Notes: a model not told the origin generated them from the letters alone. Positions 4,086-20,019 are shown, counted from the first letter of the stretch. The stretch: DNA of 64,000 bases from Candidatus Bathyarchaeia archaeon (GCA_035935655.1 DASYWW010000012.1:15618-79617), one strand, 5' to 3'. Program-made: numbers and translations.

Positions 4086-4487
4086 TTGGGCATCACCATA
4101 GACTCCAATTTCATAATACACCTTCTCCGCTCCGATCCCGCCGCTTTGGCCAAAGCAAAACAGATTGACGATAGTGGCCAGGCAAAGTTTCTAAGCACTC
4201 CTGTTCTTTACGAGATCTCTGCAGGTCTCATTTTCACTGGCTCCAGGACCGAGGCGAGTGCTTTTCGAGCGCTAGCGTCAAGGTTCGGCAGCCTGCCCTT
4301 CGATGAAGCCGCGGCTGTTAGGGCGGCTGAGATCAGAGCTGAACTATTGCGCTTAGGAAGAGCGAAGAGCCATGTGGACATAATGATCGCAGGAATCGCA
4401 CTCGAAGGCTCTCATGCGCTAGTCACTAGGGATCGTGATTTCGAGGAGATCGCCGAAACTTTAGGTCTAAATGTAGAGACTTATTGA
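4086..4487 (+). CDS. vapC: PIN-domain ribonuclease VapC (toxin of pair 3)
   Basis: TTG start at 4086; ITIDSNFIIHLL...D...YEISAG...VDIMIAGIALEGSHALVTRDRDFEEI: PIN residues; 133 aa; directly follows vapB. Confidence 0.8.
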   Translation: MGITIDSNFIIHLLRSDPAALAKAKQIDDSGQAKFLSTPVLYEISAGLIFTGSRTEASAFRALASRFGSLPFDEAAAVRAAEIRAELLRLGRAKSHVDIMIAGIALEGSHALVTRDRDFEEIAETLGLNVETY

Positions 4488-7403: not shown

Positions 7404-8495
7404 ATGTCAACGGTTCAGCTAGCCCAAATCAAAGTTGACTCGAAGACTAACGCGATCCAATCCGAACTCCGGATCGGACAAATGCGGATTCCTCTCCCTA
7501 ATAGATTTCCTATCAGCCCTGAAAGAAACGCTCTCAAGCCGGCCGGTGTAAAGGATCCGTTACCTGGGGAGGTAGCTGTTCTCGCCAGGCTCGCACCGCC
7601 CAACACGATCAAGAGAATTCTAACCCAAGAGGATGCCCTGAAATCCACGGCACGATTCCTATCAAGAGAAACGAGCCCTGACGCTGCTCGCCTCCTCTAC
7701 CTCGCCTTCAAAGGTGGAGCCATGCTGAAGGACACTCAGGACCTCAAGACAATCCTGGATCTACAATATCTTGCCGGACTTGACATCATTACAGCTCAAC
7801 ATACAGTAGACATGTCTCCAGAGGATTTCGAGGGACAACTACGGTTTGCAGAAAAGTGGATGGAAGAGCGCGGCGTCGAGAAGCCGCTGATGCCGATTAT
7901 CCAAGCCACTGACAACAAGGACATCGCTGGACAACTCGTTAAGATTGTCGAGAGGCATGAGTCGGCTCAGATCGGGATTGACCTTCGAGGCGCCTTCCAC
8001 TACCACGCTCTTCGAATAATGGAGGAGTTCAAGAAGCGGAAACCCGAGGTCTGGCTGCATGCCTTCCAGGTACCACCTAAGATCCGATTGGGACGCAGCC
8101 CTATGCCTTGCAGCCAAGGAATGATCCTGCCTATGTTCAGCATAGACAGTTTCTCGAGATGGATTGTCCCGCCGCCCCCAACGCCTCTCACGAAAGAGGT
8201 CATCAATGTTTTCGATCGAAAGGGTTGGGGAGCTCTGAAAAAGAAAGACTATGAGGAGATAAGAGGAAACTCGACGAACTGCAACTGCGCCGTTTGCCAA
8301 GGGAAAGACCTAGAGCCATTCTACGAGGGCAAAGTCTTGGACGTGCTCGCAAAAGCAAAAGTCCACGACCACTTAGCCCAGAGAAAGGAGTTGGAATCCG
8401 CTAGGGCTTCCATCAAGAAGGGAGAATTCCTTTCACTCCTGAATTCGAAACAGTACCCCAAAGAATTTCTCAGACAGATCCCGAAAGAAGCATGA
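7404..8495 (+). CDS. Hypothetical protein with a TGT-family-like C-terminal zinc signature (possible tRNA-guanine-transglycosylase-fold / DpdA-like protein)
   Basis: 363 aa. C-terminal NCNCAVCQG-x20-VHDHL gives CxCx2C plus His at +23/+25, the spacing of the Zn site of queuine/archaeosine TGTs (CxCx2C-x~26-H followed by HNL). No recognisable N-terminal TGT motifs. Confidence 0.45.
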   Translation: MSTVQLAQIKVDSKTNAIQSELRIGQMRIPLPNRFPISPERNALKPAGVKDPLPGEVAVLARLAPPNTIKRILTQEDALKSTARFLSRETSPDAARLLYLAFKGGAMLKDTQDLKTILDLQYLAGLDIITAQHTVDMSPEDFEGQLRFAEKWMEERGVEKPLMPIIQATDNKDIAGQLVKIVERHESAQIGIDLRGAFHYHALRIMEEFKKRKPEVWLHAFQVPPKIRLGRSPMPCSQGMILPMFSIDSFSRWIVPPPPTPLTKEVINVFDRKGWGALKKKDYEEIRGNSTNCNCAVCQGKDLEPFYEGKVLDVLAKAKVHDHLAQRKELESARASIKKGEFLSLLNSKQYPKEFLRQIPKEA

Positions 8496-9030: not shown

Positions 9031-9434
9031 CAACCTCAAATCTTGTTGACCTTGATAGGGTATCATCGTTCAGATACGGCGTAGTCACATGGATAGACAA
9101 AGATGGGTTCCCCTTTAGCGTCGCGACAGACTTTCTTCTGTCCGAGAATGGTGAGATTCTTCTGAAGAAACCCAGCCCTCCCGCAACAATCATGGGGGCT
9201 CGTGTTGGGGTTCTCTTCAACCACATAACCGGGATCCCAACGGGCGGCTACACTGACCGCCGCTACATGCTGGTATGGGGCACAGTGAGCGAGGATAAGG
9301 GATTCCTGAAACTGCATCCAGAAGAGGTCTCCGAGTGGGACGAGAAAATACTACCTTTCGACAAGCTGTGTGAGGCCGCTGTGCCACAAGCAAAGAGGTA
9401 CCTAGGGAGTCTTCAGCCTTCCATCGACGCCTGA
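9027..9434 (+). CDS. Second PNPOx-like split-barrel protein (start uncertain; TTG at 9027 overlaps the previous stop)
   Basis: VTWIDKDGFPFSVATDFLLSENGEILL resembles the PNPOx motif TVDxDGrPhvvPvwf. The track ORF 8853-9434 runs in a different frame over the 3' end of the previous gene, so the real start is probably near 9027-9060. Confidence 0.5.
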   Translation: MTTSNLVDLDRVSSFRYGVVTWIDKDGFPFSVATDFLLSENGEILLKKPSPPATIMGARVGVLFNHITGIPTGGYTDRRYMLVWGTVSEDKGFLKLHPEEVSEWDEKILPFDKLCEAAVPQAKRYLGSLQPSIDA

Positions 9435-10030
9435 TCCTCTTCAACAGGCTTGCTACTCTCTGCCGCTTGTGCCTTAGATTCGGCAAGGAGCATCATTAGG
9501 CTTGGGAGATCCAGTTCAGCACGGGTCCTCCAACCCAGCTTGACAAGACCTTCCTCGTCCTCTTCAAGATAACCAGATCGGAGAAACGTGTCCATTAGGG
9601 TCAGTGCTCTCCAACGCCCCGCCTTATTGCCGATGACCGTTTCCAATTCCTTCCTCTCGCTCTTCCCTTGTTTCGATACTACAAGCGCCAAAGCGGCGGC
9701 TAAGGCGGCGAGATTGTCGATTCTCCAGCCGCAAAGTCTCGCTTCCTTCGGAGTGAGAGTTCCCTTGAGACGGACGAAATATCGGGATTCTTCTTCCCCG
9801 TCGCTTGGTAGAGGTTTGTAATCGGAGAGAGACTGTGGTTCTACCTTCTTGATTTCGAGGTCCAAGTCTTTCAACCCCTCATCTAGCTGCTCTAGGACCT
9901 TCGTGTACCCTTTTCCGAGCCCCGTTTTCAACTCCCAAGACCGAGCACCTGGTACTCTCCCTCGTTTGAAGAAGAGGATGTGTGCTGCCCGCTTGACCTT
10001 TTCATGGTAGTAGGTTGGCTCGTTTTTCAC
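9413..10030 (-). CDS. scpB: ScpB-like protein (tandem winged-helix, KITE-type partner)
   Basis: IDNLAALAAALALVVSKQGKSERKELETVIGNKAGRW...GYLEEDEEGLVKLGWRTRAELDLPSL parallels the ScpB second WH motif (LSxAALETLAIIAYxQPiTRxEIExIRGV...GLIxExGR...TTxxFLxxFGLxSLxDLP). 4-bp overlap with the upstream gene. Confidence 0.5.
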   Translation of the reverse strand: MKNEPTYYHEKVKRAAHILFFKRGRVPGARSWELKTGLGKGYTKVLEQLDEGLKDLDLEIKKVEPQSLSDYKPLPSDGEEESRYFVRLKGTLTPKEARLCGWRIDNLAALAAALALVVSKQGKSERKELETVIGNKAGRWRALTLMDTFLRSGYLEEDEEGLVKLGWRTRAELDLPSLMMLLAESKAQAAESSKPVEEDQASMEG

Positions 10031-10827
10031 TTCGCCCGTATCAAAGCCTCCTTTGTTATGGGGATGGGAAAGCTGAGTGCCGATCCTTCTTGGCGGAGCT
10101 CAGGTCTTGCTTTCGGCACTAGTAGCATACTAGTCCCCTTCCGTTGCAAGTTTGCATATCCATAGCTGACAAGAAAGCTGACAAGTTGCGCTCGGGTGAT
10201 AGTGGCAGCGAAGTCGGTCCCCGTGATGAAATTCCAGTAATCCACCTTCCGATCTTCATCGGCTCTGTCCTTGAGCTCCTTCCAGAGATCCTGCATTTTT
10301 CTTGTGTAAGCCTTCTCTTCGACTATGCGCGTCCGAGCCAGTTCCCCCAAATTGGCGATACCAGGGTTGTCGAAGGGTCCGAGATGAAGCCTCTTTCTTC
10401 GCTCGAAGAAGGAGAGCATCTTATCCCAGAATTCCTTAGCTTCTTTTGTCGAAGCGAGAGTAAGTTGCTCGAGCTCTACTATCGGATGCCATGACAGGAG
10501 GAGAAACTCTGCCAATTGTTCTCTCGAAAGGGAATCAAGCTTCTGCTTCACCATAGCAGGATCGACGAAGAGAGCGCTGGACTGGAATCTGAGATTTGCG
10601 CTTTGCAATCCTACGACTCTAGCCACGCTCGTGATGGCACGCATGTCCAGTAGGTGGTCATCCAGCGTCCTCAACTGGTTCGAGTAGCGTCTAATGATAC
10701 GAAGTGCTTCGGTGATATCCAGAAGGAAGGGACTGAACCTGCGGTTCTCTATCGAGATACATGTCTGAACCAGTTCCTCCAGTTCCCGTCTGCCGGATAA
10801 TCGATGGACCTTCTCCGTCGTGGTCAT
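10027..10827 (-). CDS. scpA: ScpA-like kleisin
   Basis: 266 aa. The N-terminus RRFSPFLLDITEALRIIRR resembles FxGPLDLLLxLI. The C-terminus TDFAATITRAQLVSFLVSYGYANLQRKGTSMLLVP resembles the ScpA WHD (TFLALLELxKxGxIxL). Start and stop overlap the neighbours by 4 bp each. Confidence 0.5.
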   Translation of the reverse strand: MTTTEKVHRLSGRRELEELVQTCISIENRRFSPFLLDITEALRIIRRYSNQLRTLDDHLLDMRAITSVARVVGLQSANLRFQSSALFVDPAMVKQKLDSLSREQLAEFLLLSWHPIVELEQLTLASTKEAKEFWDKMLSFFERRKRLHLGPFDNPGIANLGELARTRIVEEKAYTRKMQDLWKELKDRADEDRKVDYWNFITGTDFAATITRAQLVSFLVSYGYANLQRKGTSMLLVPKARPELRQEGSALSFPIPITKEALIRAK

Positions 10828-12887
10828 GCGATCTCCTTAACCATTGAACTACCCTCGACGTTCTGGACTACGATGACATGGACATTGTCCTCGGGAAGGG
10901 TCACCTGTCCAGGGGTTATCGCAATGTACTGGCTTGAATCGGTGGCTCGTGATGCAGCGTGAATGAGCTTGGATACGGTTTCCCTGTTTCGCGGGTCCAT
11001 GTGAACGTCGAATTCGTCGATTGCTCGGAAAGGAGACGAGATGAACTGTTGTAGGGAAAGTAGAAATGCGATCAGTGCAACAGTCCGCTCGCCGCCACTT
11101 GGAGCTAGACCGTCCAGCGATACTGGTTCGTTTCCTTTGAATCCTGCATAGAGTTCAAGCCCTGCTTTTTCAATATCTTTGGAGGCTTTGATAACGACTC
11201 GTCCATTTGATCCAACTTCAGACAGTAGCGTGTTGTATCTTGCGGAGAGATCCTCCAGCAGCTTGTCCATGACCAGTTTCCATCGGTCAAACCGATCTCT
11301 CAGTTCGCCGAGAACTTCCGACCTGTTGTGCTCCACCACCTCGGCTTTCTTCTTTAAATCCTCGTAAAGCTCTCCATAGCTCTTGTACATCTTCTCGACT
11401 TCAGCCGAGAGATGAGCTAACGGGCGTAATCGTTCCTGAACGGAAGCGACATCTGGTGAAATCTGTTGGAGGTCTCTAGGACTCTCAAAGACTGGTCCCA
11501 GCTGAGAGGCCTGTGTTCGAAGGGGACCGATTTCATCTTCGCCAATCCGAAGTTGGACCTCGAGTTCTTGAACCTCCTGTTCCATTAATGCAAGCTTGAA
11601 GTTGCTGACCTCTTTCTTGACTCTGGACTCTATGAGAAGGTCGGTATTCTTGCTGAGTTGCGAGGTTAAGTCGGAAATGCCTGTGCGCACTTTCTCGAAG
11701 TCCTGCTCCGCGGTCTTTGCAGTGTTCGAAATTCGCTCCTGCTCGCCGCCAAGATCCGACAACACTTGGCTAAGTTGATTGCTCTCAGACGAGACGCTCA
11801 CATCGGGAGCCCTTTGCTGAAGCGAGGTCAGATAGTGCTGCTGTGTTCTGAGGAGGTCAGTGGCTTTTGAGATCCATTCTAGTGCGCCTGCTCGAAGCCC
11901 TCGACCATGTTCAAGTTTCAGATGTTCTTCCCTAAGTCCCTCAAGTTCTTCGGAGACTTTAGCGAGGTCGATAAGGACTTGTTGGTGTTGTTTATGAGAT
12001 GTTTCAAACTCCTCTCTCGTTTCATCTATCTTGGCGTGAAGGGAAGAGATTCTGTCTTTCACACGTTTTTGTGAGGATTCTCTTCTGATAATGCGTCTCC
12101 AGAGGAGTTCTCTCTGAAGGTCCTTCCACTGATCCTCGAGTTTCCTTTTCAACTCATATTTCTCGTATTCCCGCTGCCAATGCAAATACGTCTCCCTCGT
12201 GCCCTCCAGGACCGAAGACATTGTCTCCCGTTCAGTTGTGAGTTTCTGTAATCGAGAGGAAGCGTCGAGCACTTCCCGGCGATACGCTCCAAATCCTACG
12301 GCATCTTCCAAGAGAAGAAGCTTGTCAATTGGGCTCACCGAACCGAATCGTCCGACCATAAGCTGGTGCATTATCACAAGCATGTTGTCAGGGTTGAGTC
12401 CTATTCTGGAAAGTCCTTCGACCAGGTTTGTCTTACTGATTGGTTTGTTGTTTAGCAAGTAGTGGTAATCTCCAGATCTCTTGAGGACTCGGGTGAGGAG
12501 GACCTTGTCTGATCTGGCTTGTGGAAATGGTCGAGCCCCTTTCGGGGCTTCGTTGTCTAGTAGAAGTGAAATGCGGGCTTCTTGTTCATTCCAGCGTATC
12601 AGCTCGCTGAGCTTTTTGGCGCGCTCTGTGTATGCTTGGCCCAAGACGACGCTTATTGCTAGGAGTATGGATGATTTTCCTGCGCCGTTGGGTCCTATGA
12701 TCAGGTTTAGGCCTGGTCGGAGTGGAATGCTGGTGTTCTTGTAGGACATGAAGTTTGAGAGTTGGACTTCGCGGATCAATTTCCGACAAGCAGCCTTGTT
12801 GTTGGAGAGTATGGGCCTGGCTGAATTAGAAGTCTTTCTCGTCCAATCAATGTTTATATACGCGATTTGGCATTTTTCGCCTTTCAT
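10824..12887 (-). CDS. SMC-family ATPase, unusually short (687 aa) and apparently hinge-less
   Basis: N-terminal IREVQLSNFMSYKNTSIPLRPGLNLIIGPNGAGKSSILLAISVVLGQ (Walker A). C-terminal LSGGE-type signature PSGGERTVALIAFLLSLQ plus Walker B DEFDVHMD. The centre is continuous heptad-rich coiled coil with no glycine-rich hinge block and no CxxC zinc hook. Confidence 0.8.
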   Translation of the reverse strand: MKGEKCQIAYINIDWTRKTSNSARPILSNNKAACRKLIREVQLSNFMSYKNTSIPLRPGLNLIIGPNGAGKSSILLAISVVLGQAYTERAKKLSELIRWNEQEARISLLLDNEAPKGARPFPQARSDKVLLTRVLKRSGDYHYLLNNKPISKTNLVEGLSRIGLNPDNMLVIMHQLMVGRFGSVSPIDKLLLLEDAVGFGAYRREVLDASSRLQKLTTERETMSSVLEGTRETYLHWQREYEKYELKRKLEDQWKDLQRELLWRRIIRRESSQKRVKDRISSLHAKIDETREEFETSHKQHQQVLIDLAKVSEELEGLREEHLKLEHGRGLRAGALEWISKATDLLRTQQHYLTSLQQRAPDVSVSSESNQLSQVLSDLGGEQERISNTAKTAEQDFEKVRTGISDLTSQLSKNTDLLIESRVKKEVSNFKLALMEQEVQELEVQLRIGEDEIGPLRTQASQLGPVFESPRDLQQISPDVASVQERLRPLAHLSAEVEKMYKSYGELYEDLKKKAEVVEHNRSEVLGELRDRFDRWKLVMDKLLEDLSARYNTLLSEVGSNGRVVIKASKDIEKAGLELYAGFKGNEPVSLDGLAPSGGERTVALIAFLLSLQQFISSPFRAIDEFDVHMDPRNRETVSKLIHAASRATDSSQYIAITPGQVTLPEDNVHVIVVQNVEGSSMVKEIA

Positions 12888-12935
12888 TGGAGCGTGCCAG
12901 GTGCGGGATTAAGACGGCTTGGCAAAGTTCTGCAC

Positions 12936-16212: not shown

Positions 16213-19200
16213 TTGCCCCGTTTCAAGAGTTCAGCGGACATTCTAAAGATCGTCTCCAACAAGGACCAGATACGCAACATAGGCATCATCGCCCACGTGG
16301 ACCACGGGAAATGTGTCGACGGTGAAAGTATGATTACCCTATCCGATGGGCGGATAGAAGAGATTGCCCAAATCTACGAGAAGCTGAGAAGAAAAGGCCC
16401 TTCAATGGCTCAAGTTGACTCGCTGAATCCCCGGACCCTCAAGATGGAAGACCGGAACGTCTCACACGTCTGGAAACTACACAGCAACAAGCTAGTCAAG
16501 GTTACCCTTAGGAACGGCTACTCTGTGGAGACGACACCAGAGCATCCATTCTTCACAATAGCAAAGGATGGAATAGTCAGGCAGAAGAGGGCAGACGGGA
16601 TTAAGAGAAATGACTTGGTGCTCGTTCCGAACACCCTACGCTCCATCCCAAGTAGAATGGAAGAAATAAAGTCCGAAATCTTGGAAGTGATGAGTTCTCA
16701 TCAGTATTACATCGTCTATCTAGAAGGAAGGTTCTCCGAAGAACTTGAGCGACTGGTTAACGACAAGGGAATGAAGCAGGTTTATTCCAGCCTCCGATCA
16801 AATTCTTCGTTCAAGGCCTTCAGAGCGGGACTCGCCCTTGGTAGAATCAGACTAGACGATCTGGTAAAAATCACAGATTCGCTCAGAATACCCAGGGACC
16901 GCGTCTATGATCACATACGCCGAATGGCATACCGGCTAAGCCGTGCCAAGCCCGGCAGGCTTTCAAACCTAATCAAACTGCCACGAACTCGGAAGCAATT
17001 CCAGGATCTGGCTTACCTTCTTGGTGTCCTTTGGGGTGATGGTTCTAACCGGGCTAGCTTCAACAACGGGTACGGGCCGCTTCTGGAGACCGTTTCCCAA
17101 ATTTTTCAGAGAGTTTTCGGGGTCAGCACAATCCTCGTGAAGGACAAGAGAAGAAACACCTATCGGCTCGATCACCACGGTGGTTTCAGCCTCATCAGAT
17201 TCCTCGAAGACACCTACCAGTACCCCACAAAGCACAAGGCCCACAATATTGTCTTTCCCAAGTTGGTCCTCAAGATGGGAAACGAACACGTCGCTGCGTT
17301 CCTCAGAGGGGAATTTGATACAGACGGTGGGGTTGAAAGGACTAGCGCCGTAATTTCCCTAACAACTGCCAGTCGAAAGTTTGCAAGACAAGTATCAATC
17401 TCTTTGCTGAGATTCTCGATCATTCCAACAATCCGCCAGAAAGGAAAATACTTCACAATAACAGTATCAGGGCACGATACTCTGAGGTTTGAGAAGACAA
17501 TCGGATTTACCATTCCAAGAAAGCGTGTGGCGCTGCATATTCTCGCTCGCAAAGCGGTGAGCAGCAGAAAGACTGGAATTGTTCCTATCGGCTGGCAGAC
17601 TCTCCGGGAAATTAGGAACCAACTGGGGATTCCCTCTTCATATTTGGAATCCAAAATCCCATTTTACTGCAGCTACGAGTCAGGCAGGCAAAACCTCACA
17701 AGGCCGATCTTCCAAAGCCTCGTTAGCGCTTTTGAAAAGTTCATTGCGTCAAGGCCTTCGAAAGATACCGCCTTCACCCTAGTGCGCGAATGGCGCAAGC
17801 TTCTCGAGGGAGAGATTCGACCTATCCCGGTAAGTGAGATAGGGACACGTACCGGTTCATTCGACGTTTACGACCTGACAGTTCCAGAGAATCACACGTT
17901 CATCGCTAACGGTATAGTCGTCCACAACACTACGATGACGGATAGTCTCTTGTCTGGTGCCGGATTGCTTTCGCCGTCTTTGGCTGGCACAGCTCTGGCC
18001 ATGGACTTTATGGAGGAGGAGCAGAAGCGCCAGATGACTATCAAGGCTGCAAACGTCAGTCTCTATTACGAGCATAACGACATGCCTTTCGTCATCAATC
18101 TCATCGATACTCCCGGTCACGTGGACTTTTCGGGCAAGGTTACTAGATCACTACGCGCTATTGATGGAGCGGTCGTTGTCGTCGACTCCGTTGAAGAAGT
18201 GATGGTTCAGACAGAGACGGTGACGCGACAAGCGCTCGAGGAGCGTGTCCGGCCCGTTCTTTACATTAACAAGATTGACCGTTTGATCAAGGAGCTGAAG
18301 CTCAATCCTGAACAGATACAGGAAAGGGTCGCACGGATAATCAAGGACTTCAACGCCCTCCTCGATCTCTACGCTGAGCCCGAGTTCCGAGAGAAGTGGA
18401 AGGTAAACTTCGCGACCAATACCGTGGCGATGGGCTCAGCCAAGGACAGATGGGGCTTCAACGCTGTTGTCGCCAAGAAGAAAGGAGTCAAGTTCTCCGA
18501 CGTAGTCGACGCTTACGTTAACGGGAAGGTGGAGGAGCTCAAGAATAGAGCCCCCATTCACGAGGCCATCCTCGGAATGGCAGTAGAGGTAATGCCTCCG
18601 CCGCACAAAGCGCAGGTCTACAGGATTCCGAAGATCTGGCATGGAGACCCAGACAGCGAGTATGGCCAGGCTATGATCAAGTGCGACGACAAGGGCCCGG
18701 TACTAATGTCCGTCACCAACATCGTTGTCGACCCGCAGGCTGGCGTGGTTGCGACTGGTCGCCTGTTCTCAGGTACGGTCACGGATGGAGAGCCTGTCTT
18801 TCTGATCAACTCGCGCACCCAGGGAAGGGTCCAGCAAGTTGCCATATACATGGGACCGCAACGGGAGATTGTCGGACATCTTAGCGCAGGTAACATTCCC
18901 GCGCTTCTTGGACTAGAGAACGTGAAGGCAGGAGAAACCCTCGCCTCTGTGAAGCAATTCGTCCCCTTCGAAGCAGTCCACTATGTCACTGAGCCAGTTG
19001 TCACCATAGCGGTGGAACCGAAGTACAACAGAGATCTTCCCAAGCTGGTTGAGATCTTGAGAAAGCTCTCGCTGGAAGATCCGAACCTTGTGACGAGCAT
19101 CAACGAGGAAACTGGCGAATACCTGATCTCTGGTATGGGCACGCTTCACCTTGAGATTGCAAATACTCTGATCACCAAGACTGGAATGGAGATTGTCACC

Positions 19201-20019
19201 TCTAAGCCCATTGTCATCTATCGAGAGGCGGTGCGGAGGGAAGCGGGTCCGGTTGAGGGTAAATCTCCGAACAAGCACAACAAGATCTACATTGAAGTCG
19301 AACCCCTCGAAGATGCTGTTTTGGATCTGATCAAGCAGGGTAAGCTCAGCGAGTATGGTGACAAAGCCGAGATGGCCAAGCTCCTTCGAGGAGTAGGATG
19401 GGAGCCTGAGGAGGCTCGTGGAGTATGGAGCATCGACGAACCCTTCAACATGATCTTGGACGTCACCAAGGGAGCGCAGTACGTGCAAGAGGTGAAGGAC
19501 ATGATATTGGCCGGATACAGGTGGGGAATCAAGGAAGGTCCAATTGCTTACGAACAGATTCGAGGGTTGAAGGTCAAGATTAGCGACGTCAGTCTTCACG
19601 AAGACCCTGTCCACAGGGGTCCGGCACAGATCATGCCGATGACTCGTCGAGCAATGTTCGTGGCCTTCCTGGAAGCCGCGCCGACATTACTGGAGCCAGT
19701 TCAGAAGATTACGACTCGCGTTCCGAATGAGCTATTGGGGGCCGTGACCAGTGTGATTACACAGAAGCGTGGAAAGATTGTGTCAGTCGACCAGAAGGGA
19801 CACTTGGTCTCCGTAGTTGGAGAGATGCCAACCGCCGAAAGCTTCGACTTGTCTGAGGTCATGAGGAGTCAGACCCAGGGACGAGCGTTCTGGGGTTTGG
19901 AGTTCGCTCGATGGTCGCCTGTTCCTACTTCTTTGTTGCAAACGGTTGTTGAGGGCATAAGAAAGCGAAAGGGACTCTCTCTCGAGCCGCCGAAAGCGTC
20001 CGACTTCATGGAAGCTTAG
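16213..20019 (+). CDS. fusA: Translation elongation factor 2 (aEF-2) precursor interrupted by a 539-aa intein in the P-loop
   Basis: Extein: IRNIGIIAHVDHGK | intein | TTMTDSLLSGAG, then the G domains (NLIDTPGHVDF, NKIDR) and domains II-V, with the diphthamide-site HRG (DPVHRGPAQI). Extein total is about 729 aa, normal for aEF-2. Confidence 0.95.
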   Translation: MPRFKSSADILKIVSNKDQIRNIGIIAHVDHGKCVDGESMITLSDGRIEEIAQIYEKLRRKGPSMAQVDSLNPRTLKMEDRNVSHVWKLHSNKLVKVTLRNGYSVETTPEHPFFTIAKDGIVRQKRADGIKRNDLVLVPNTLRSIPSRMEEIKSEILEVMSSHQYYIVYLEGRFSEELERLVNDKGMKQVYSSLRSNSSFKAFRAGLALGRIRLDDLVKITDSLRIPRDRVYDHIRRMAYRLSRAKPGRLSNLIKLPRTRKQFQDLAYLLGVLWGDGSNRASFNNGYGPLLETVSQIFQRVFGVSTILVKDKRRNTYRLDHHGGFSLIRFLEDTYQYPTKHKAHNIVFPKLVLKMGNEHVAAFLRGEFDTDGGVERTSAVISLTTASRKFARQVSISLLRFSIIPTIRQKGKYFTITVSGHDTLRFEKTIGFTIPRKRVALHILARKAVSSRKTGIVPIGWQTLREIRNQLGIPSSYLESKIPFYCSYESGRQNLTRPIFQSLVSAFEKFIASRPSKDTAFTLVREWRKLLEGEIRPIPVSEIGTRTGSFDVYDLTVPENHTFIANGIVVHNTTMTDSLLSGAGLLSPSLAGTALAMDFMEEEQKRQMTIKAANVSLYYEHNDMPFVINLIDTPGHVDFSGKVTRSLRAIDGAVVVVDSVEEVMVQTETVTRQALEERVRPVLYINKIDRLIKELKLNPEQIQERVARIIKDFNALLDLYAEPEFREKWKVNFATNTVAMGSAKDRWGFNAVVAKKKGVKFSDVVDAYVNGKVEELKNRAPIHEAILGMAVEVMPPPHKAQVYRIPKIWHGDPDSEYGQAMIKCDDKGPVLMSVTNIVVDPQAGVVATGRLFSGTVTDGEPVFLINSRTQGRVQQVAIYMGPQREIVGHLSAGNIPALLGLENVKAGETLASVKQFVPFEAVHYVTEPVVTIAVEPKYNRDLPKLVEILRKLSLEDPNLVTSINEETGEYLISGMGTLHLEIANTLITKTGMEIVTSKPIVIYREAVRREAGPVEGKSPNKHNKIYIEVEPLEDAVLDLIKQGKLSEYGDKAEMAKLLRGVGWEPEEARGVWSIDEPFNMILDVTKGAQYVQEVKDMILAGYRWGIKEGPIAYEQIRGLKVKISDVSLHEDPVHRGPAQIMPMTRRAMFVAFLEAAPTLLEPVQKITTRVPNELLGAVTSVITQKRGKIVSVDQKGHLVSVVGEMPTAESFDLSEVMRSQTQGRAFWGLEFARWSPVPTSLLQTVVEGIRKRKGLSLEPPKASDFMEA
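16312..17928 (+). mobile_element. Intein with LAGLIDADG homing-endonuclease domain inserted between GK and TT of the EF-2 G1 motif
   Basis: Starts CVDGESMITLSDG (block A), TxxH block SVETTPEHPFF, two LAGLIDADG blocks (LAYLLGVLWGDGS, AAFLRGEFDTDGGV), terminal SFDVYDLTVPENHTFIANGIVVHN followed by a +1 Thr. 1617 nt, in frame. Confidence 0.85.

Follow-up and report, generated by a model that had tools for sequence, protein, structure and literature searches.

What does a three-gene operon do when its SMC-type ATPase has short arms and no hinge? In a soil archaeon of the Bathyarchaeia, an operon on the minus strand encodes such an ATPase together with proteins of 266 and 205 amino acids (aa). The preliminary description of the 64,000-nucleotide stretch of DNA analyzed here (the window) took the two smaller proteins to be ScpA-like and ScpB-like. 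It proposed either a reduced or novel chromosome-organization complex or a relative of defense modules. We found that the operon probably encodes a derived version of the SMC5/6-related SMC-kleisin-KITE complex known from TACK/Asgard archaea, in which the hinge and the outer half of each arm have been lost from the ATPase. The first proposal held in that the complex is not the textbook condensin, but the published SMC5/6-related identity had not been considered. Operons of this kind are already known from phylogenomic work on TACK and Asgard archaea (Yoshinaga & Inagaki 2021, PMC8665677; van Hooff et al., bioRxiv 10.1101/2024.01.07.573240). The main text of these papers describes hinge-mediated dimers and mentions no hinge-less form. 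The absence of the hinge thus appears to be the new element.

Operon layout and architecture of the ATPase

The SMC ATPase gene (positions 10824 to 12779, minus strand) is followed on the same strand by the gene of a predicted kleisin (10027 to 10827; 266 aa) and by that of a predicted KITE subunit with two winged-helix domains (9413 to 10030; 205 aa). Each pair overlaps by 4 bp. The kleisin ATG overlaps the SMC stop codon (ATGA, in gcATGAcc), and the KITE GTG overlaps the kleisin stop codon (GTGA, in gaaGTGAaa), with GGAG-like motifs upstream of the junctions. The operon is translationally coupled, and its tight layout, as first described, was borne out by the open reading frames (ORFs) and junction sequences.

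The SMC length of 687 aa given previously is correct for the longest ORF (10824 to 12887, minus strand, from ATG 12887), but the protein itself is more likely 651 aa, starting from TTG 12779 (residue 37 of that ORF). Distant homologues start aligning at residue 37, and most orthologues are called at the 651-aa length. A candidate archaeal TATA box, TATATAAA (12853 to 12860, minus strand), was read in the divergent intergenic region common to the SMC operon and the Gar1 gene. It sits ~75 nt upstream of TTG 12779, on the downstream side of ATG 12887, and presumably functions in a promoter. Based on these three observations, we take TTG 12779 as the conserved protein start.

Translation confirmed the positions described earlier for Walker A (GPNGAGKSS; 12669 to 12695, residues 65 to 73 of the 687-aa ORF), the ABC signature (PSGGE; 11088 to 11102, residues 596 to 600), and Walker B with the D-loop (DEFDVHMD; 10995 to 11018, residues 624 to 631), all on the minus strand. 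Walker A and the signature are invariant in family alignments, as are D588 and E589 of Walker B, the catalytic glutamate being present. The ATP-binding and hydrolysis motifs are intact, and the protein matches Pfam SMC_N (E = 1.9e-36). AlphaFold2 modelled the SMC heads poorly, so a structure search with this model does not discriminate between families.

The arms were modelled with higher confidence (pLDDT ~80 to 93). In the 651-aa protein, AlphaFold2 predicted an N-terminal arm helix of ~24 nm (residues 164 to 323; 11811 to 12290, minus strand) and a C-terminal arm helix (residues 330 to 521; 11217 to 11792, minus strand), joined at the arm tip by the 6-residue turn APDVSV (residues 324 to 329; 11793 to 11810, minus strand). 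The position of the tip also agrees with an alignment gap and with the conservation profile: in the family alignment, no other part of the ATPase is so poorly conserved or so rich in indels. The C-terminal helix is broken at residues 428 to 436 and 455 to 458, and this break region is conserved across the family. The coiled coil first described as uninterrupted is thus real as a pair of long arm helices but not strictly continuous, given the tip turn and the two breaks.

A Pfam search of the ATPase did not find SMC_hinge, the hinge dimerization domain that an SMC protein in the strict sense carries at the arm tip. There is also no cysteine in the protein read from TTG 12779, and hence no zinc hook; none of 47 short-form protein clusters contains a CxxC motif. 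An SMC-family ATPase with short arms and with neither hinge nor zinc hook, as initially proposed, is therefore what Pfam, AlphaFold2, and the lack of cysteine support. SMC_hinge did match in two homologues, P0441 (E = 4.6e-11) and P0394 (E = 0.0039), and hinge-bearing homologues carry the same two partner genes in their operons. Compared with hinge-bearing homologues with homologous partner genes, ~400 residues are absent exactly at the arm tip, the position at which hinge-bearing and zinc-hook homologues alike have ~400 extra residues. The main gap in the alignment with long homologues follows residue 322 and accounts for 291 of the ~420 missing columns. Since the deletion takes matched stretches from both arm helices, a continuous hairpin remains.

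Affinity to SMC5/6 and predicted assembly

Yeast Smc5 led a single-sequence phmmer search of the PDB. With the family profile, the ten best distinct PDB sequences were all SMC6 or SMC5 (205 to 245 bits), followed by SMC2 and Pyrococcus Smc (189 bits). Eukaryotic SMC5 and SMC6 were also the named full-length matches outside the archaeal family in a library of 1.84 billion proteins, and some orthologues carry the JGI name SMC5. At the position of the H-loop histidine, the ATPase reads I-T-P-G-Q (10905 to 10919, minus strand), as in eukaryotic SMC5/6 (aligned with QYFLITPKLL of yeast Smc5). An [IVLF]TP motif occurs in at least 46 of the 47 short clusters and in named SMC5/SMC6 representatives, whereas representatives presumed to be canonical SMC show TH or neither motif. 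A neighbor-joining tree of head domains, which carries no support values, placed the family as sister to eukaryotic SMC5+6. By these sequence comparisons, the head is closest to SMC5/6 rather than to canonical SMC. We rejected a reduced canonical Smc, as the family profile favors SMC6/SMC5 and the ITP motif replaces the H-loop histidine.

Neither partner protein matched Pfam ScpA or ScpB at E values of up to 1. The kleisin matched Pfam Nse4_C below threshold (E = 0.056). Its family profile retrieved only eight PDB matches; among the best of them, also below threshold, were human EID3/NSE4B (E = 0.02) and, for yeast Nse4, hits with E values of 0.021 to 0.076. Together with Nse4_C, these two count as the kleisin's specific matches; one KIF2C match with an equal score was taken as chance. 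The aligned stretches locate a C-terminal winged-helix region, matching the C-terminal domain of Nse4, at approximately 10081 to 10362 (minus strand). In the KITE protein, two H-H-H-E-E units of secondary structure correspond to two winged-helix units. The best full-length Foldseek matches of its model (pLDDT of 56, confident in the second winged helix only) were MAGE-G1/NSE3, MAGEA4, JetB, the Nse1-Nse3-Nse4 complex, and MukE, with E values of 6e-3 to 0.2. Three independent members of the KITE family gave sub-threshold matches to Pfam SMC_Nse1 and MAGE. When aligned by hhalign with the genes of hinge-bearing operons, the kleisin matched the middle genes (98.9% and 93.5%) and the KITE protein matched the third genes (99.2% and 95.2%). 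These weak but consistent signals, drawn from sub-threshold sequence matches and a low-confidence model, point to an Nse4-type kleisin and an Nse3/MAGE-type KITE. The earlier reading of the partners was sound in seeing one as kleisin-like and the other as KITE-like with tandem winged helices, but not as to their ScpA/ScpB identity.

With heads closest to SMC5/6 and partners probably of the Nse4 and MAGE/NSE3 types, the operon most likely belongs to the published SMC5/6-related complex. It shares with that complex the TACK lineage and, in one operon, the order of SMC, a probably Nse4-related kleisin, and a probably Nse1/3-like KITE, and its partner genes have homologues in a hinge-bearing operon of Freyarchaeum (Asgard) and in the operon of a 982-aa homologue that has a hinge. 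It differs in the SMC itself, where the missing hinge and tip residues leave arms of roughly half length. Among solved structures, eukaryotic Smc5/6 complexes with Nse4 and Nse1/Nse3 (for example, PDB 7qcd, 7tve, and 8i4x) score best against the ATPase. They resemble the Bathyarchaeia system in the ITP at the H-loop position and, by weak matches, in the C-terminal domain of the kleisin (Nse4/EID3) and in the KITE model (MAGE/Nse3). Unlike them, the system in the window has one SMC gene, one KITE gene, and no hinge, and neither a RING domain nor Nse2 or Nse5/6 was seen in it. Given the single SMC gene in the operon, the ATPase presumably forms a homodimer rather than an SMC5-SMC6 heterodimer.

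In the assembly that we envisage, two SMC copies, each folded back into an antiparallel arm of ~24 nm, would sandwich ATP between their heads. The kleisin would link one SMC at its neck to the other at its cap and carry a KITE dimer. Double-stranded DNA may then be gripped by the engaged heads on one side and the kleisin/KITE module on the other, comparable to the DNA clamp of yeast Smc5/6. With only a short, unconserved turn at the arm tip, the two SMC copies probably stay together solely at the head end, by way of kleisin, KITE, and ATP; the arm-tip model is of a monomer, and tip-tip association between two SMC copies is compatible with it. Rather than closing into a hinge-to-head ring, such a complex would serve chromosome maintenance or segregation as an ATP-gated clamp or tether on DNA. 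All of these assembly and DNA-binding steps are inferred.

Alternatively, the short SMC could pair head-to-head with an SMC paralogue, either canonical Smc or a long zinc-hook form from Bathyarchaeota, in an asymmetric, SMC5-SMC6-like dimer. Potential partners exist: Bathyarchaeota have close paralogues of 1,016 to 1,047 aa with a central CDKCG motif that stand alone without a kleisin or KITE of their own, and canonical SMC is also present in 44 of 80 archaea with SMC5/6-related SMC (PMC8665677). However, the 64-kb window contains no second SMC gene, the operons in Thermofilales and Thaumarchaeota loci have a single SMC gene each, and such operons have been viewed as encoding separate homodimeric complexes (bioRxiv 10.1101/2024.01.07.573240). 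We consider this pairing unlikely and prefer the homodimer of the SMC5/6-related complex.

Other SMC-like systems and the defense alternative

The preliminary description called for a comparison with SMC, Rad50, RecN, LmuB, JetC, and ClsN. Canonical Smc-ScpAB shares the SMC-kleisin-KITE architecture and the SMC-type head, but the ATPase is ~500 aa shorter, and it scored 186.7 bits against an equivalog cutoff of 729.4 for TIGR02169 and 154.4 against 567 for TIGR02168. Together with the missing hinge and the lack of ScpA/ScpB matches, these scores uphold the view that the complex is not the textbook condensin. Rad50 is characterized by a zinc hook of the CxxC type and by Mre11 as its partner. 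Its models matched only the N-terminal 75 residues (~66 bits against cutoffs of 700 to 1,087), and no Mre11-like neighbor lies beside the operon. RecN (TIGR00634) scored 37 bits against 408. Wadjet (JetABCD) combines a JetD Toprim nuclease with a MukB-like, hinge-bearing JetC. The operon here has no fourth gene, and the PADLOC JetC model reached only 30 bits, in a match confined to the Walker A region. The archaeal short SMC-superfamily proteins known as ASRPs (ClsN/coalescin and Sph1/2) are similar in size (~600 aa) and in having no canonical hinge, but they have a zinc hook and no conserved neighboring genes (PMC9389158); their model NF045487 scored 43.7 bits against a cutoff of 300.

Among defense systems, LmuB of Lamassu (LmuA-LmuB-LmuC), also an SMC-like ABC ATPase, resembles the present ATPase in size (~650 aa) and in its short arms (~20 to 24 nm) (PMC10586767). 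A Lamassu- or Wadjet-type module acting against plasmids or phages, which has kept its kleisin and KITE and whose effector is unrecognized or unlinked, would also fit with the JetB and MukE matches among the KITE folds. The PADLOC mad3, LmuB, and AriA models match significantly, but as generic ABC/SMC heads. PIN/VapC-like ORFs lie 5 to 8 kb from the operon, and a TGT-like gene lies ~0.9 kb downstream of it; the latter linkage is not kept in distant lineages. LmuB often has a zinc hook and generally an E-to-Q change in Walker B (PMC10586767), whereas the present ATPase has no hook and keeps the glutamate (DEFD). In place of LmuA, there are kleisin and KITE partners, neither of which matched any PADLOC model, and no nuclease or other effector was found in or beside the operon in any lineage examined. 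The operon is flanked by Gar1 and TFB on one side and PNPOx-like genes on the other, and these housekeeping genes are syntenic in an orthologue at 70% identity. Operon composition is also constant across TACK lineages. The housekeeping context, the retained Walker B glutamate, and the lack of an effector gene make a defense role, one of the two alternatives first raised, very unlikely.

Conservation of the short form

Independent metagenome assemblies gave 34 loci with 3 kb or more of upstream flank. Every one keeps the three genes, with an SMC ORF of 504 aa in a single locus and of 636 to 694 aa in the other 33. The 120 close orthologues are mostly 626 to 703 aa long, with a few shorter entries. 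At least 47 protein clusters (50% identity) share the short form (548 to 685 aa), diverging to 32% identity with the architecture unchanged.

Longer hinge-bearing homologues with the same operon layout do occur in other lineages, but the possibility that the shortness reflects a frameshift, a gap in the assembly, or the decay of a full-length SMC into a pseudogene, the first two of which had been named in advance as what would undo the claim, is effectively ruled out by the 34 loci, the orthologues, the clusters, an intact ORF with all ATPase motifs, and the matched removal from both arm helices that leaves the hairpin continuous.

Bathyarchaeia share the operon with Thermofilales and Thaumarchaeota, and loci L168 and L082/L083 keep it as well. 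A conserved natural hinge-less variant of the SMC5/6-related complex calls into question the need for a hinge in an SMC5/6-type machine. In L168, the operon directly precedes a CdvB-CdvA-Vps4 cell-division cluster.

A three-gene operon with a short SMC-type ATPase

The operon consists of three minus-strand genes encoding an SMC-type ATPase (10824-12887; 687 aa as the longest open reading frame [ORF]), a putative kleisin (10027-10827; 266 aa), and a putative KITE protein (9413-10030; 205 aa). At both junctions (gcATGAcc and gaaGTGAaa), the stop codon and the next start share 4 bp, and GGAG-like motifs lie shortly upstream of the overlapping starts. Translation of the first gene yielded Walker A (GPNGAGKSS), Q-loop (MHQ), ABC signature (PSGGE), and Walker B (DEFDVHMD) motifs. 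A Pfam search of the same protein returned SMC_N (E = 1.9e-36), with the match split over the full length, and did not find SMC_hinge. An identical protein is recorded in a Candidatus Bathyarchaeia MAG, where it is annotated only as an "AAA family ATPase."

The true start of the SMC gene is likely the TTG at 12779 (651 aa), because the alignment to all distant homologues and to solved SMC structures begins at residue 37-38 of the 687-aa ORF, many orthologues have a called length of ~651 aa, and a TATATAAA box (12853-12860, minus strand) is located downstream of the ATG at 12887. This box falls within a divergent intergenic region (12780-12935) common to the SMC and Gar1 genes. The longest-ORF starts of these two genes (12887 and 12867, respectively) overlap mutually, and both are probably too far upstream.

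The preliminary description of a short, hinge-less SMC in a three-gene operon held with minor corrections. We rejected a frameshift or assembly artefact as the source of the shortness on the basis of orthologue lengths, short clusters at 50% identity, and intact metagenome loci. The closest orthologues (n = 120; 70-92% identical) were mostly 626-703 aa long, with a few shorter entries. Among 1.84 billion representative proteins, we recovered about 47 complete clusters (50% identity) that share this short build (548-685 aa; 429-563 residues from Walker A to the signature motif), diverging down to 32% identity with the window SMC. Among 80 metagenome loci fetched via the KITE (third) gene, the 34 with at least 3 kb of upstream sequence were used for an operon count; all 34 had the three genes in order, and 33 had an SMC ORF of 636-694 aa, a result that measures operon integrity and not diversity, as the scan with the KITE alignment recovered close soil relatives only (at least 71% identity). 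A scan of a genome collection with the SMC alignment, which used a degenerate Walker A pattern, recovered mostly bacterial Smc and only two true family loci. The short-arm, hinge-less form occurs widely enough to count as a genuine biological variant.

Arm architecture and relatives with other tips

We built an AlphaFold2 model of the SMC on 27 orthologues, in which the heads were poor and the arms confident. In the numbering of the 651-aa form, the N-terminal arm helix spans residues 164-323, a six-residue turn (APDVSV; residues 324-329) makes up the arm tip, and the C-terminal arm helix covers residues 330-521, briefly interrupted at 428-436 and 455-458. At ~160 residues (about 24 nm), the predicted antiparallel arm is half as long as usual and lacks a globular tip. 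Alignment to longer homologues shows a gap of about 400 residues in the short forms, directly after residue 322. The arm tip had the lowest conservation and the most indels in close and distant alignments alike, and conservation climbed steadily from there to the heads. The window SMC contains no cysteines, and no central CxxC occurred across the 47 short clusters. The short SMC does lack the hinge. The two breaks interrupting the C-terminal arm helix (GPVFESPRDLQQISPDVASVQERLRPLAHLS; window 11505-11600, residues 428-458) are more conserved than the flanking coiled coil and could represent a joint or a site for partner binding.

Some longer homologues do carry a hinge. It is divergent in a 982-aa protein (P0394; SMC_hinge, E = 0.0039 across nearly the whole model) and clear in an 835-aa protein from the Asgard archaeon Freyarchaeum (E = 4.6e-11). 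Both belong to the same kind of three-gene operon. In hhalign comparisons, the window kleisin and KITE scored 98.9% and 99.2% against the P0394 partners and 93.5% and 95.2% against the Freyarchaeum partners; judged from these alignments, the partner genes of the hinge-bearing operons are homologous to those in the window.

Three further clusters (1016-1047 aa; two from Bathyarchaeota) have at their tip a central motif, C-D-K-C-G, that resembles the zinc hook of Rad50. In both hook lineages with loci examined, these SMCs stand alone, without kleisin or KITE genes. The hook paralogues on three Bathyarchaeota contigs (L081, 4876-8019; L166 and L167, 5001-8087) are 1028-1047 aa long, with heads ~40% identical to that of the short SMC. 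In a rough head tree, the hinge-bearing form was basal and the two included hook forms were nested among the short forms, which suggests that the hinge was lost and that one branch was later re-extended with a hook.

Affiliation of the SMC and its partners

The window SMC scored far below the cut-offs of the canonical Smc model (TIGR02169; 187 bits against 729), Rad50 (about 66 bits over the first 75 residues only, against 700-1087), RecN (37 against 408), and ASRP/ClsN (44 against 300). Defense models gave generic head matches only (LmuB, 70 bits; JetC, 30 bits, confined to the P-loop). Profile scores and defining features place the protein in none of the families tested, namely, canonical Smc-ScpAB, Rad50, RecN, ASRP/ClsN, LmuB, and JetC.

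Among solved structures, the best matches were instead eukaryotic SMC5 and SMC6. Yeast Smc5 was the closest match in a single-sequence search against solved structures, and a family profile (24 diverse members) searched against the PDB returned human and yeast SMC6 and SMC5 for all of the top ten (205-245 bits), with SMC2 and Pyrococcus Smc next (189 bits). In the 1.84-billion-protein library, the named full-length matches outside the archaeal family were likewise eukaryotic SMC5 and SMC6. The family shares with eukaryotic SMC5/6 an I-T-P motif at the position of the H-loop histidine in canonical SMCs, and a rough neighbor-joining tree of head domains (no support values) placed it as sister to eukaryotic SMC5 plus SMC6, with canonical SMCs outside. 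A structure search with the SMC model returned Rad50, Smc5/6, Smc, and cohesin alike and did not discriminate between them, because the heads were modeled at a pLDDT below 50.

Neither window partner protein matched Pfam ScpA or ScpB or any PADLOC model. The 266-aa protein had a sub-threshold Pfam match to Nse4_C (E = 0.056). A kleisin profile, obtained by widening its family with Thermofilales and Thaumarchaeota homologues, retrieved eight distinct PDB sequences at E values of up to 10; four of these, sequences of human EID3/NSE4B (E = 0.02) and yeast Nse4 (E = 0.021-0.076), are kleisins of the Nse4 family, and each aligns at the C-terminal winged-helix domain. For the KITE protein, the sequence profile gave chance-level PDB matches only, and the fold search alone was informative. 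Its weak AlphaFold2 model (mean pLDDT of 56; second domain alone confident) predicts two helix-helix-helix-strand-strand units, and the best full-length Foldseek matches to this model were all KITE proteins (MAGE-G1/NSE3, MAGEA4, JetB, the Nse1-Nse3-Nse4 complex, and MukE; E = 6e-3 to 0.2). Sub-threshold Pfam matches to SMC_Nse1 and MAGE recurred across independent family members. The Nse4_C, EID3, and Nse4 matches and the KITE fold matches, weak as they are, consistently point to partners of an Nse4 plus Nse3/MAGE type rather than ScpA/ScpB.

Yoshinaga and Inagaki defined "SMC5/6-related" archaeal SMCs, mostly from the TACK superphylum and including Bathyarchaeota (PMC8665677). Van Hooff and co-workers described TACK and Asgard operons combining an SMC5/6-related SMC, an Nse4-related kleisin, and an Nse1/3-like KITE and proposed that they form homodimeric complexes distinct from the condensin-like one (bioRxiv 10.1101/2024.01.07.573240). 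The window operon fits this description. The earlier interpretation was right in kind, as a complex with kleisin and tandem winged-helix partners, and is partly supported overall, the partners more likely being of the Nse4 and Nse3/MAGE type than ScpA and ScpB. The main texts of PMC8665677 and bioRxiv 10.1101/2024.01.07.573240 describe dimers formed via the hinge; a hinge-less or short form is mentioned in neither. Our literature search found no experimental study of an archaeal SMC5/6-related complex. The kind of system is already known and experimentally uncharacterized; the hinge-less, short-arm form is apparently undescribed.

Genomic context and proposed role

At one end the operon adjoins Gar1 and TFB, and at the other, two PNPOx-like genes together with a TGT-like gene; EF-2, exosome, and proteasome genes are found farther along the window. 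The flanks are conserved in an orthologue at 70% identity. A defense module of the Lamassu/Wadjet type, raised earlier as an alternative, is unlikely, because the lineages examined showed no nuclease or other effector linked to the operon and, in contrast to LmuB, Walker B retains its glutamate. The 64-kb window contains no canonical Smc-ScpAB. In one distant lineage (L168, 1389-8329), the short operon is immediately followed by a Cdv cell division cluster in the same orientation, made up of Snf7/CdvB, CdvA, a 265-aa ORF, and a Vps4-like AAA gene. In the orthologous locus L082, CdvA (1-198) lies ~8 kb from the operon; Cdv genes were looked for in the window and not found. An Lhr-type DEAD/DEAH helicase occurs within a few kilobases of the operon in two distant lineages (L001, 3951-6788, minus strand; L164, 10599-11962, plus strand), which may reflect chance or a link to DNA repair. 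Anecdotally, the Cdv and Lhr neighbors point toward chromosome biology.

Hinge-mediated dimerization and long arms are regarded as defining for SMC-kleisin machines and are central to present models of DNA entrapment and loop extrusion. In the short complex, the heads of two SMC copies would engage upon ATP binding, the kleisin would span neck and cap and bear a KITE dimer, and DNA could be clamped between the heads and KITE/kleisin, by analogy with the clamp formed by yeast Smc5/6. Since no conserved interface for dimerization is present at the arm tip, closure of the assembly is probably limited to the head end, and the complex may act as an ATP-gated clamp or tether rather than a hinge-closed ring. 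It is conceivable, if somewhat short of probable, that these operons represent an extensive and ancient archaeal clade of SMC5/6-type complexes with kleisin and KITE, half-length arms, and no hinge or other tip dimerization domain, and that tips were exchanged several times in the same head lineage, so that some members carry a hinge, most carry nothing, and a nested subgroup, which also lost its kleisin and KITE neighbors, carries a Rad50-like CxxC hook. If so, the SMC5/6 lineage would not require a hinge for its core activity, and a single family would straddle the sharp textbook line between "SMC-kleisin" and "Rad50-like" architectures. A natural hinge-less, short-armed SMC with kleisin and KITE, conserved over many archaeal lineages and part of the group suggested to be the archaeal relative of eukaryotic SMC5/6, would be a minimal test of the head/kleisin/KITE module alone, and the nested zinc-hook paralogues would offer a natural series for arm-tip swapping in evolution.

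The TGT-like gene beside the operon (7404-8495, plus strand) encodes a 363-aa protein with a CxCxxC...H zinc motif and a sub-threshold Pfam match (TGT, E = 0.0019) to the C-terminal portion of tRNA-guanine transglycosylase. It is 74% identical at L082 and unlinked to distant operons. We rejected it as a conserved fourth gene: it is kept in close relatives only and is unrelated to the 365-aa gene beside the L164 operon. Elsewhere in the window, the EF-2 ORF (16213-20019, plus strand) is 1268 aa long, far above the expected archaeal EF-2 length, with a large insertion directly after the P-loop (AHVDHGK/C...) that ends at ...VVHN/T and looks like an intein. Three ORFs of ~135-150 aa clustered at the window start (1157-1612, 2133-2549, and 4086-4487, plus strand) look like PIN/VapC-type toxins from their N-terminal sequences, compared by eye only.
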